From NCBI GenBank assembly GCA_965197525.1, contig OZ240211.1, positions 672,001 to 736,000 on the forward strand: a stretch of DNA of 64,000 nucleotides. The letters run 5' to 3'. A model generated the notes under the pieces. That model saw only the letters and a list, made by a program, of their open reading frames with translations, was not told the DNA's origin and did no database searches. Made by a program: the position numbers and the translations under genes. Source of the DNA: Nitrosopumilus sp. (GTDB taxonomy: Archaea > Thermoproteota > Nitrososphaeria > Nitrososphaerales > Nitrosopumilaceae). Shown here one piece after another: positions 39,981 to 42,650 of this stretch. Numbering within the stretch: position 1 is the first letter of the stretch; each line of letters opens with the position of its first letter.

Positions 39981-40296
39981 GTTATTAGTTAAATTTTGAA
40001 TAGTTTGCTTATAAATGCAATGAACGATTTGTCTATATTAGAATTAAATAATTTTAGAGCGTAATCATCGTCGTCATTCTTAAGGCTAGAATACAATCAA
40101 AACGTCGAGTTAGGACATGATTTTGGCCCTAAAATAACATTCAGAATATGAGATGTTCAGGTATCACCTATGTTAAAACATCCAGGCACAGCCACGCGTG
40201 GTTTCCATTTGGCCTTCGATCCACGCCTACAGTACCCGTATGTGTTTTTAAAGCTATCGCTAGGAAAAAAACTGCAACAGATGTGTGACTGACTGG

Positions 40297-41397
40297 CTAT
40301 TCCGTACCCTGCATAGACTGTCGAACACTGTTCATTCTCTTTATCTTTCTGCCATATCTTTGTACATTGTGTGACTTGTACGGTTCCCTGAGTGTCAGTA
40401 TGGCCCAAATGATTCGTATCATCTTGTTTGCCACATGTGTTACGGCAATCGCATGTTTGCCGCCATGTCTTTTTTTGCATCTCTCATAGAACTCCTTTAA
40501 CTTGTCATCGTATCTTACTGCCACGTTTGCTGCTTGAATAAGTATCCAGTTTATTCTTCTGTTTGCTGCCTTTTTCATGCGGCCATGATGTGTTACATCA
40601 CCTGATTGGTAGACGGTGGGACACATGCCTGCCCATGAGACCAAGTGTTCCGGGGTTTTGAATCTTGATATGTCCCCAATCTCTGATACGACAAGCATTG
40701 ATGCAAATACATCCAGTCCTGTCATGCTCATAAGCAATCTTGCATCATCGTTTACTGCTGCTTGTTTGTCTATCTCTGTTTCGACATTTGTTATCTCTTC
40801 TGTGACATGTGCAATTCTTTTGGCACAGTTCTTCAGTATCAGGTTGTCGTTTGGTCTTTTCAGTTCTGTATGTGAGAGCAGTCCGATGGCTTTTTTGCTG
40901 TACATGTTTGAGACGTTCAGTCTTACATCGTACTTGTCAAGCAGATTGTGTGTATAGTTGATAAGTGCAGTCCTTGCCTGGACCATGCTTATTCTGTACC
41001 TGAGCAGCTCTCTGGCATCACGCAGTGCCGGGGGCGCCACATAACACCGGGGAATCATCCCTACACAAAGTATGTTGGCAATCTTTCGTGCATCGATGGG
41101 ATCCGTCTTGACGTCGGTATCTGATATTATCTTCATCTTGTAGGTATTGGCAAGCTGGATTGGTATGTCGTGTTCCTCAAATGCCTCAAATGTCTTGAGC
41201 CACATGTTTCCTGTAGTCTCGCATGCAGCACGACACTGTCCTCTTCTCCTGCCGTATTTTCTTTTCATCCTGCCTGCAAACTCTTTTGCATCTTCTAGCG
41301 TATTGTCATATGTAGTCTCCTCTAGTATTCTTTCCTTGTCATCCATGACACATACTACGCATTTTCTCTTGCTAATGTCTATTCCAATATTTCTCAT
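40297..41397 (-). CDS. IS110 transposase/recombinase
   Basis: GIDISK, CETTG, KTDPIDA, SWAGMCPTVYQSG; SD sequence GGAGGTGA upstream of ATG 41397. Confidence 0.93.
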   Translation of the reverse strand: MRNIGIDISKRKCVVCVMDDKERILEETTYDNTLEDAKEFAGRMKRKYGRRRGQCRAACETTGNMWLKTFEAFEEHDIPIQLANTYKMKIISDTDVKTDPIDARKIANILCVGMIPRCYVAPPALRDARELLRYRISMVQARTALINYTHNLLDKYDVRLNVSNMYSKKAIGLLSHTELKRPNDNLILKNCAKRIAHVTEEITNVETEIDKQAAVNDDARLLMSMTGLDVFASMLVVSEIGDISRFKTPEHLVSWAGMCPTVYQSGDVTHHGRMKKAANRRINWILIQAANVAVRYDDKLKEFYERCKKRHGGKHAIAVTHVANKMIRIIWAILTLREPYKSHNVQRYGRKIKRMNSVRQSMQGTE

Positions 41398-41428
41398 CCT
41401 TTTTATCACCTCCTTGCGGATTGTTTTT

Positions 41429-41546
41429 GATGGATCGGAGGCTGCAATCACCTATCAGTGCGCGAGGCACAGGAACGCAGCAGCTCGGATTGCCCCATTC
41501 AAAGTTAAGTGCGCGAAGCACATGTTTCCTAAGGGGTCGATCCATC
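41429..41546 (+). ncRNA. Predicted bridge RNA with two internal guide loops, antisense to the transposase
   Basis: Outer stem GATGGATCGG/TCGATCCATC; twin hairpins GTGC-GCGAR-GCAC; loop sequences match both junctions. Confidence 0.65.
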
Positions 41547-42650
41547 ATCTAGACTACGACGAGGATGTTTTTACATGCATTCAAAGTTATAGAAACAGTA
41601 CTTAAAGATGGAATTTGCGGTACTGGAACTATAGTGCAGTGGCAGACAGAGTCTTACATAGTATAATGAACACAAAACAAAGGATAGCCAAATAACAGAC
41701 ATATCACGCATTAGAGATCCTGGAGCTAGTAATATTTGAAAAATCCCAAAAAGATTCTAGCTTAATTCATGGCGGTCTTTGAGAATTATTTGTCATGATT
41801 TCAATAATAATAATAATAATCACAATAACAACAACAATAACATAGCCAAAATACTTTAGTTTTCAAGTCTTGTATCTCTTGTAATAGGGAGATTGATTTG
41901 CACGATTATGTGCAACTTTTTATCATCAAACGCTATCCTGCCTTGTTGTAAGCCGTTTTTTTTTTTTGGTCTATGACATAATGAGAACATCTCAAACAAT
42001 CTAGGTACTAGAACATTTTGTATTTTTGATATGTATTGCATACAGCAGAATCCACACTTGTATTTACAATACCATGACAAGTCTGACCCTGCTTTTTTGT
42101 ATAGTTTGGTTAGTACGAATTTGGCGCAACCAAAATCTGTTATCTTCTCAATGATCTCGTATTTCTTACAGGTATCACATACATCTTTACACTTGTATCA
42201 AGATAATATCATTATTCATTAGAATATTTAGAACAAACATATTTCTTAAAAAAACAGTATAACAGATAAGATCAATATTTGAAATACTAGCATGCATATT
42301 TTTTTTAAAATCAGTAAGACTCAGAATCTAACCAATATTCACAAACACATCTTCCAAGAAGATCAGGTTATTCAGACATAAACCACAAAATCATACCAAG
42401 ATTGAATAGGACAAAAAAAGTGGTCATACTAGAACATTGTATTACATTTCATAGAGATGAGACATGGTTTGTCTCCTTGCGTTTGCCAAGTAATTGATAA
42501 CAGTGATGCAAGCCATGTACAGCAGATATTTTAGATTTGTGGACATATTTGTAAAGAGGGGATTGCACAGATATAGGCATCATACATACATACATACGTT
42601 ATCAGTAATGATACAACACGATTAAAAAAAATAAAAAAGATGATAATTTG

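Follow-up and report, generated by a model that had tools for sequence, protein, structure and literature searches.

A two-loop bridge RNA, very probably read in the sense of the recombinase, in an archaeal insertion sequence of IS1111 type

Introduction

The window analysed here, a stretch of 64,000 nucleotides (nt) of DNA from Nitrosopumilus sp. (contig OZ240211.1, positions 672,001 to 736,000), carries on its minus strand a recombinase gene of the IS110 family with non-coding regions on either side. Since this family of enzymes is RNA-guided, the locus raises the question of where the element begins and ends, which RNA would guide its recombinase, and from which strand that RNA would be read. 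A previous interpretation, made from the letters of the window (hereafter the sequence-only reading), had proposed an archaeal IS110 element with a TAT core and a bridge RNA on the plus strand, antisense to the recombinase. Judged by its ends, guide order and recombinase motif, the intact IS110-family insertion sequence that we find at 40167-41583 is of the IS1111 type. Taken as a whole, the locus is best explained by an IS1111-type element with a sense bridge/seek RNA in its left end, encoded ahead of the recombinase gene on the strand of that gene, an explanation that we consider probable.

Results

An IS110-family element in four intact copies

40167..41583, minus strand: element body with one copy of the 2-nt core, 1,417 base pairs (bp); four near-identical copies in the genome
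40297..41397, minus strand: IS110-family DEDD/Ser recombinase gene, 366 amino acids, ATG at 41397
41406..41413, minus strand: Shine-Dalgarno sequence GGAGGTGA, 8 nt before the ATG, read from the sequence

The recombinase matched the Pfam families DEDD_Tnp_IS110 (PF01548, 1.3e-22) and Transposase_20 (PF02371, 1.2e-24), and the NCBIfam model NF033542, 'IS110 family RNA-guided transposase', with 230.7 bits against a cut-off of 140. It holds the two domains that define the family, a DEDD RuvC-like domain and a Transposase_20 domain with its SG motif. Residues D7, E60, D99/D102 and QSG 264-266 are invariant or nearly so among 28 homologues, and the N-terminus and the G[ML]CP....QSG motif are kept in homologues as well; the form found in the window, GMCP....QSG, fits the GL-P----SG motif of IS1111. 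Matches in the PDB to IS621 and ISCro4 were distant (E ~1e-7). At the place of the Shine-Dalgarno sequence, homologous loci keep TCACCTCC.

A search of the genome, a single contig of 2.21 Mb, returned four full copies of the element with 96-100% identity, which we name w (the window copy), c2, c3 and c4. The landmarks of their ends are spaced 1,416 nt apart in all four. The same genome also contains a relative at 58% protein identity and about ten left-end fragments. In species-representative genomes, a profile scan yielded 80 homologous loci, nearly all of them from Nitrosopumilaceae, Cenarchaeum, Nitrososphaerales and metagenome-assembled genomes of Bathyarchaeia, and the left end could be aligned for about 75 of the 80 by iterated nhmmer. 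The Pfam and NCBIfam matches, together with the four intact copies, bear out the proposal that this is an archaeal IS110 element.

A TG core defines the ends of the element

40165..40166, unstranded: core dinucleotide, CA on the plus strand and TG in recombinase sense, at the right-end (RE) junction; from copy alignment, family and uninterrupted sites
41582..41583, unstranded: core dinucleotide, CA (plus) or TG (sense), at the left-end (LE) junction; same evidence
41563..41576, unstranded: LE arm of the subterminal inverted repeat, 14 nt, 13/14 complementary to 40170-40183
40170..40183, unstranded: RE arm of the subterminal inverted repeat, partner of the LE arm

In all copies and throughout the family, the two junctions have only a CA of the plus strand in common, which is TG in recombinase sense. 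Aligned in plus orientation, the four copies share ...CC-TAT-GTTAAAAC on their left side, and on their right side they read CATTCAAAGTTAT, CATTCAGAGTTGA, CATTCAAACTAG and CATTCAAACTACC. In recombinase sense, with LT and RT denoting the left and right target half-sites, the junctions read LT-TG-AATGCATG... and ...CATAGG-TG-RT, and the RE motif holds across the family. Uninterrupted copies of an IS5-like element in the genome read AAACTAGTT-TG-TTTCATAAC, which is exactly the left flank of copy c3, one TG and its right flank. From the copy comparison and from these paralogous empty sites, which fit a TG core, it follows that the element spans 40167-41581 and is flanked by CA at 40165-40166 and 41582-41583. 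There is a single TG at uninterrupted sites and a TG on both sides of the insert, and the flanks resemble each other and the guides described below; the element therefore has the character of the IS110 family, with no terminal inverted repeats, no target duplication beyond the short core, and insertion that is specific for site and orientation. Its subterminal inverted repeats lie 3 and 5 nt inside the cores, their arms covary in relatives, and their 14 nt fall within the 7-17 bp of the IS1111 group.

The shared TAT core of the sequence-only reading did not survive this comparison: where the window copy has TAT at the right site, the others have TGA, TAG and TAC, and the core sits 4-6 nt inside the TAT that had been taken to mark the element ends. 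The empty site predicted from it, ATCACC-TAT-AGAAAC, is likewise misplaced, as the paralogous uninterrupted sites read LT-TG-RT exactly. We used these paralogous sites in place of an orthologous empty site; in 40 relatives the flank is kept only within the neighbouring gene and not up to the insertion point. For the excised circle we predict, in recombinase sense, the junction ...GGATGTTTTAACATAGG-TG-AATGCATGTAAAAAC.... Neither a circle junction nor tandem copies were found in the genome or in the homologous loci retrieved, and a pattern covering both TG-type and TAT-type junctions had no match among metagenome contigs.

A conserved five-helix fold in the left end

The coordinates below are given on the strand argued for further on.

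41429..41546, minus strand: core fold of the bridge RNA, ~118 nt, closed by P1 (41538-41546 with 41429-41437); from folds, consensus and covariation
41509..41521, minus strand: distal hairpin P3 of the target loop; compensatory changes in 4/4 pairs
41493..41496, minus strand: 3' strand of stem P2 (GGGG), pairing with 41533-41536 (CCCC) and closing the target loop; 98.8% of cells paired
41458..41470, minus strand: distal hairpin P5 of the donor loop; compensatory changes in 3/4 pairs
41438..41445, minus strand: 3' strand of stem P4, pairing with 41480-41486 and closing the donor loop; near-invariant, hence with little covariation evidence

The long non-coding left end contains conserved and covarying helices, as is characteristic of a bridge/seek RNA. 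In the consensus, derived from 20 lineages less than 85% identical to each other, P1 closes the structure, P2 and P3 surround the first loop, and P4 and P5 surround the second. Pairing is kept in 96.2% of cells, with compensatory changes in 18 of the 25 pairs; none of 500 shuffles equalled these values, and slid controls also remained far below them. Changes are compensatory in 8/8 pairs of P1 and occur on both sides in 3/4 pairs of P2, and across the five helices 76 double changes preserve pairing. The outer stem (41429-41437 with 41538-41546) around two loops, each capped by GTGC-N5-GCAC (41458-41470 and 41509-41521), had been recognised in the sequence-only reading and is thus confirmed, and so is the idea of a compact, readable two-loop bridge RNA inside one stem, now with covariation at the level of the family. 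No Rfam family matches the bridge RNA region.

The fold differs in size among some relatives. In the 58%-identical relative (L005:1424-1565, G000:1456851-1457024) the linker between the loops is expanded by 18 nt, G-rich on one strand and C-rich on the opposite one, and in the loci L077 and L069 the hairpin of the donor loop is longer by 20-25 nt. The linker and the hairpin tips consequently tolerate insertions.

Four guides match the flanks and the joined ends

41523..41531, minus strand: right target guide (RTG), sense UAGGAAA-CA, 5' side of the target loop; complementary to core and RT on the sense strand
41497..41508, minus strand: left target guide (LTG), sense UUAACUU-UG with AAU extension, 3' side of the target loop; identical to LT, core and the first 3 nt of LE
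41471..41479, minus strand: right donor guide (RDG) region, 5' side of the donor loop; GCGUUC (41473-41478) is complementary to GAATGC at the start of LE, counting one rG·dT wobble
41446..41457, minus strand: left donor guide (LDG), sense UGAUAGG-UG-AUU, 3' side of the donor loop; identical to the RE end CATAGG and core TG; holds ATCACCTAT
41584..41590, unstranded: left target half-site of the window copy, sense ATAACTT; 6/7 identical to LTG
40158..40164, unstranded: right target half-site of the window copy, sense ATACCTG; 4/7 fit to RTG

Read in recombinase sense, the loops have the form stem / N7-core'-U / hairpin / N7-core-N3 / stem. The first loop varies between lineages, and the second is conserved and matches each element's own ends. 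Because the variable loop fits the flanks and the conserved loop fits the element's own ends, their roles can be assigned: the loop numbered 2 in the sequence-only reading, which counts along the plus strand, carries both target guides and its loop 1 both donor guides, the reverse of what had been proposed.

Covariation between guides and DNA among homologues, suggested earlier as a check, was found for all four guides. RTG agrees with its cognate RT at 4.38/7 positions on average and with non-cognate ones at 1.85/7, and LTG with LT at 4.13/7 and 1.84/7, respectively; none of 10,000 permutations reached either value. In the donor loop, the RDG region scored 5.15/9 with cognate and 3.27/9 with non-cognate ends (0/10,000 permutations), the match lying at LE positions 3-8. 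LDG is conserved in the family and fits each element's own RE end (7.0/9 against 4.76/9 for non-cognate ends; 1/10,000 permutations). At the core, among 60 distinct pairs of guide and LE-junction DNA, the T agrees in 100% and the G in 87%, and in locus L080 the right target guide matches at 9/9 positions. The extension of the left target guide covaries with the LE start, AAU being replaced by ACU where LE starts with ACT (UGACU with TGACT in loci of the Bathyarchaeia group). For the extension in the donor loop (AUU after the core), inspection by eye revealed no consistent covariation with the right flank. Loop segments that match, and covary with, both strands of the target and of the joined ends are the hallmark of a bridge/seek RNA, and the RNA is in principle programmable.

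The copies within the genome follow the same pattern. Copies w and c2 share the guide UUAACUU and are flanked by ATAACTT and TCAACTC; copies c3 and c4 share UUUAGUU and are flanked by ACTAGTT and GGTAGTT. Copy c2 alone has a GGGAAAC guide, and its flank is TGGGAAACG / GGGAAACG.

The identities on which the sequence-only reading was built are real, and each is a composite. The 9/9 match of ATCACCTAT (41447-41455 with 40163-40171) joins two flank bases that agree by chance, the core CA and five bases of the element, and the 12/12 match of CATTCAAAGTTA (41496-41507 with 41578-41589) joins four bases of the element, the core CA and six flank bases. The match of the 3' guides to the product junctions (TGTTTC and GAAACA) is seen in the window copy only.

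About ten solo or decayed left ends, with the bridge RNA region and no intact recombinase, are dispersed in the genome (G000: 1712306-1712560, 161828-162072, 2186888-2187170, 2177465-2177618, 1812662-1812751, 474702-474753 and others). In several of them the target guide no longer fits the adjoining flank.

The bridge RNA is very probably read in recombinase sense

Several features point to the recombinase-sense strand as very probably the one that encodes the bridge RNA. Over the 25 covarying pairs of the 20 lineages, 27 G·U pairs were counted on the sense strand against 6 A·C combinations, which would be G·U on the other strand. Paired cells amount to 96.2% in sense and 91.9% in antisense, with ten lineages favouring sense and three antisense. 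The RNAalifold energy was -35.1 kcal/mol for sense and -31.9 kcal/mol for antisense. Of 23 lineages folded as single sequences, 17 had the lower minimum free energy (MFE) in sense, with a mean difference of -4.5 kcal/mol (p=0.0017); without the decayed copies the count was 16 of 19, and control windows of coding sequence gave a difference between strands of +1.4. Wobbles between donor guides and DNA (rG·dT, rU·dG) numbered 32 for a sense RNA and 5 for an antisense RNA, of which 26 and 5, respectively, fall in the RDG region.

The geometry of the guides points in the same direction. Only with a sense RNA does each guide pair with the DNA strand that reads 5'-core-flank-3' and is the core of the 3'-side guide followed by the extension. 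An RNA of the plus strand would have the core at the 5' ends of its guides, and no rotation of the DNA makes the two layouts equivalent. The seekRNAs known from the IS1111 group, which are sense, and the upstream layout of ISHvo10 (both compared below) also speak for a sense RNA. The G·U statistics, folding energies, guide:DNA wobbles and IS621-type polarity thus all favour the minus strand over the antisense RNA proposed before. The accompanying statement that G-U pairs favour the plus strand does not hold either, given equal energies for the single copy and a G·U count in the family of 27 to 6 for the minus strand. The antisense assignment is most likely an artefact of a core misplaced by a few bases; the impression arises because the DNA is turned by 180 degrees with respect to the gene cassette relative to IS621, in addition to the misplaced core.

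Some observations weigh against a sense RNA with the guides assigned here. Taken alone, the window copy folds equally well on both strands (-43.7 and -43.5 kcal/mol, z ~-2.6 each). An extra pair at the base of P4 is a G·U on the plus strand in 7 of the 20 lineages, although a bulged register also works in sense, and a few decayed copies in the genome fold better in antisense. The argument from guide polarity rests on IS621. A T-rich TTTTTATC lies ~26 nt before the start of P1 on the plus strand, and is not kept in relatives. Finally, the window copy's own right flank fits its guide at only 4/7 positions, which makes its site a half-matched one.

Two promoter candidates were considered and rejected. 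As a TATA box of the plus strand, TTTTTATC is conserved neither in sequence nor in spacing. On the sense strand, P1 is preceded at ~24 nt by a conserved A-rich box, GTAAAAAC; this is the subterminal repeat itself and was not taken as evidence for a promoter.

Target sites of the four copies

Copies c3 and c2 sit exactly at the termini of other repeated mobile elements, and the window copy and c4 lie in unique DNA. Copy c3 (L003, G000:1421270-1422690) is found at the very terminus of an IS5-like element with a DDE_Tnp_1 transposase, present in five copies (L103:236 onward). Its target consists of the typical CTAG flank of the IS5-like element and the first bases of that element, TTTGTTTCATA. 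Copy c2 is located at the end of a second repeat family with eight copies, whose small open reading frames have no Pfam match. Upstream of a copy of this second family (G000:1256245-1256275), a right-end remnant of another IS110-type element (GATGTTTTAACACAAG-TG) adjoins TGTTTCCTAATTT, which agrees with the right target guide of the window copy at 9/9 positions. The lineage of w and c2 thus seems to prefer that end of the second repeat family as its target.

At the window site, the left half of the target is good (6/7) and the right half poor (4/7). A second TG followed by a good match to the right guide occurs at 41592-41598 (sense TG-TTTCT), 13 nt upstream of the core that was used. A 2026 preprint (10.64898/2026.08.31.748434) reportedly describes 'half-match' insertion, which the window site may recall; chance may account for it as well.

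Conserved blocks of the right end

40167..40296, minus strand: right-end non-coding region with conserved blocks, 130 nt

When the right ends of 27 loci are aligned, conservation is seen in an AGCTWTAAA box, in a hairpin-like block and at the ...TTTTAACATAGG end. The box is strongly kept just past the recombinase stop (window 40245-40264, minus strand CCTAGCGATAGCTTTAAAAA), and the block that follows has the form GCGTGG...CCACGC. The box is a possible archaeal promoter which, if it faces outward, would read over the circle junction into the bridge RNA. Further along, positions 40212-40223 are complementary at 11/12 positions to 41431-41442, the 3' strand of P4/P1, and the two segments covary in relatives (GATCGAAGG, GACCGGAA, GATCAAAA, GATCAGAAG). 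In a transcript across the circle junction, the right-end segment could compete with the 5' strand of P1; alternatively, the complementarity could be an inverted repeat at the level of the DNA.

Discussion

Proposed mechanism and alternative explanations

How the system could operate is suggested by what is shown above: an element with defined ends and core, a conserved fold and four relationships between guides and DNA. With the strand and ends that we infer for the RNA, the 5' side of the first (target) loop would pair with the core and right flank on the sense strand, and its 3' side with the other strand of the left flank and core, running 3 nt into the element's own left end in a handshake-like manner. 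The second (donor) loop would read the joined ends of the excised circle likewise. The complex of recombinase and RNA would then exchange strands at the TG core, so that the circle is inserted. Circle formation and chemistry are presumed here by homology with IS621 and ISEc11. Preferred sites would resemble TTAACTT-TG-TTTCCTA and, in this genome, would mostly be termini of other insertion sequences.

Other explanations have to be weighed against this one. The left end might encode no guide RNA at all: its segments could be internal duplicates, at the DNA level, of end and flank sequence, whether as binding sites for protein or as what nested insertions left behind, and its fold could be incidental. 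Repeats at the DNA level do exist, namely the 14-bp subterminal inverted repeats and the further complementarity between RE and LE, but five helices kept through 76 double changes in 20 lineages, a G·U asymmetry that is a signature of RNA, guides that retarget together with the flanks and an enzyme from an RNA-guided family make this the least probable of the explanations considered. The model of the sequence-only reading, a plus-strand RNA antisense to the recombinase with loop 1 as target loop, loop 2 as donor loop, a TAT core and ends at 40172 and 41587, draws on the literal 9/9 and 12/12 identities, on one plus-strand G·U in the window copy and on the TATA-like TTTTTATC upstream. We regard it as very unlikely: copies without TAT at the right site would need a length change of 1 nt, the paralogous uninterrupted sites contradict it, its 3' guides match nothing beyond the GAAACA of the window copy, and its 'target' guide would be conserved across phyla and its 'donor' guide variable, all in addition to G·U, energy and wobble statistics that favour the other strand.

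A third possibility accepts the CA/TG core and reads the RNA from the plus strand, divergent from the recombinase and in a mirror-image layout with the core at the 5' ends of the guides. Complementarity to DNA is equal for either strand, and the equal folding of the window copy, the G·U at the base of P4 in 7 lineages and a run of T downstream of the fold on the plus strand are all compatible with it. The G·U count of 27 against 6, the differences in MFE and RNAalifold energy and the 32 against 5 donor wobbles favour the sense strand, however, and no conserved promoter-like box is found at a fixed spacing on the plus strand. Its polarity and handshake position would moreover be unlike those of the solved IS621 complex despite homologous enzymes, and sequenced bridge/seek RNAs are all sense. 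We therefore consider it unlikely; if true, it would imply a mirror-image guide geometry unlike that of any known bridge/seek RNA, and a different docking of RNA and DNA on an IS110-type enzyme.

Comparison with known systems

The explanation preferred here, an IS1111-type element with a sense bridge/seek RNA in its left end, combines features of two described groups. The seekRNAs of the IS1111 elements ISEc11, ISPa11 and ISKpn4 are sense, and in them the match to the top strand precedes that to the bottom strand (Siddiquee et al. 2024, PMC11187229). The group has subterminal inverted repeats and usually a downstream RNA; exceptions are ISMtsp17, with the RNA upstream, and ISHvo10 and ISAcp5, in which both sides have long non-coding regions (PMC11187229). 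The present element resembles this group (PMC11187229) in its DEDD recombinase with a G(L/M)xP....SG motif, in its long subterminal inverted repeats with short terminal extensions, in two matches that overlap at the crossover point, and in insertion in one orientation at specific sites such as the ends of mobile elements. Two of the four copies here sit at such termini, although hosts and targets differ from the known cases. If the RNA is sense, as we propose, the segment complementary to the top strand also lies 5' of that for the bottom strand (RTG on the 5' side, LTG on the 3' side). Unlike in typical IS1111 elements, the RNA gene is located upstream of the recombinase (41429-41546) and not downstream, even though a downstream region of 130 nt is also present; the target and donor loops stand side by side in one closing stem of ~118 nt, and the host is an ammonia-oxidising archaeon.

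Among named elements in the plasmid collection, ISHvo10 from Haloferax volcanii (ISfinder) has the recombinase closest to the present one (31% identity over 99%); it is a diverged relative of IS1111 with long non-coding regions on both sides (PMC11187229). ISHvo10 has perfect 14-bp subterminal inverted repeats and an RE end ...CCATAGG-TG with a TG core. Inspected by eye, without covariation, its upstream region appears to contain a GUGC hairpin followed by GUGCUGACU, which repeats the left flank, and a second hairpin followed by CAUAGGUG, which repeats RE end and core; this would again be a target loop followed by a donor loop. It differs in a longer upstream region and an extended second hairpin. 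We found no published description of an ISHvo10 RNA in the literature. On pHV4, ISHvo10 (L105, 462-486 and 1901-1919) adjoins a TnpB gene.

In IS621-type RNAs, the match to the bottom strand comes first and that to the top strand second (Durrant et al. 2024, PMC11208160). The guides of IS621 pair with strands reading 5'-core-flank-3', the core of the 3'-side guide continues into a handshake guide of 2 nt, and wobbles occur between guide and DNA (Hiraizumi et al. 2024, PMC11208158; Durrant et al. 2024, PMC11208160). Like IS621 and ISCro4, the element described here has its RNA upstream in the left end, with the target loop first and the donor loop second, each built as stem, guide, hairpin and guide; it also shares with them a 2-nt core within the guides, 5'-core-flank-3' pairing, an extension past the core on the 3'-side guide, and rG·dT wobbles. 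The 5'-side guides, in contrast, pair here with the recombinase-sense strand and in IS621 with the opposite strand, which would mean that the DNA is turned by 180 degrees with respect to the gene cassette. With a TG core, the guide order of the IS621 type, in which the 5' side corresponds to left flank and core of the sense strand, is found for neither RNA strand, and the sense RNA has the opposite order. Further differences are the lack of a separate 5' stem-loop and the single closing stem, the length (118 nt against 177 nt), the core (TG against CT) and the subterminal repeats, 14 bp here and absent or 2-3 bp in the IS621 type.

The system is of a known kind and does not introduce a new principle; new is the archaeal example. 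It adds a readable archaeal clade (Nitrosopumilaceae, Nitrososphaerales and Bathyarchaeia) to the recombinases with bridge/seek RNAs, one in which the four guides, the 2-nt core and the handshake-like extension can all be assigned from sequence alone, and its compact RNA of ~118 nt could interest engineers of small programmable recombinases or of genetic tools for archaea. By joining ends and guide order of the IS1111 type with an upstream RNA of the IS110 type, the element also provides a data point on the divergence of the two groups. An IS1111-type element with an upstream RNA is what might be expected of an intermediate between the two arrangements, and a possible route of divergence would be that the cassette was first inverted with respect to the ends and the RNA gene relocated afterwards.

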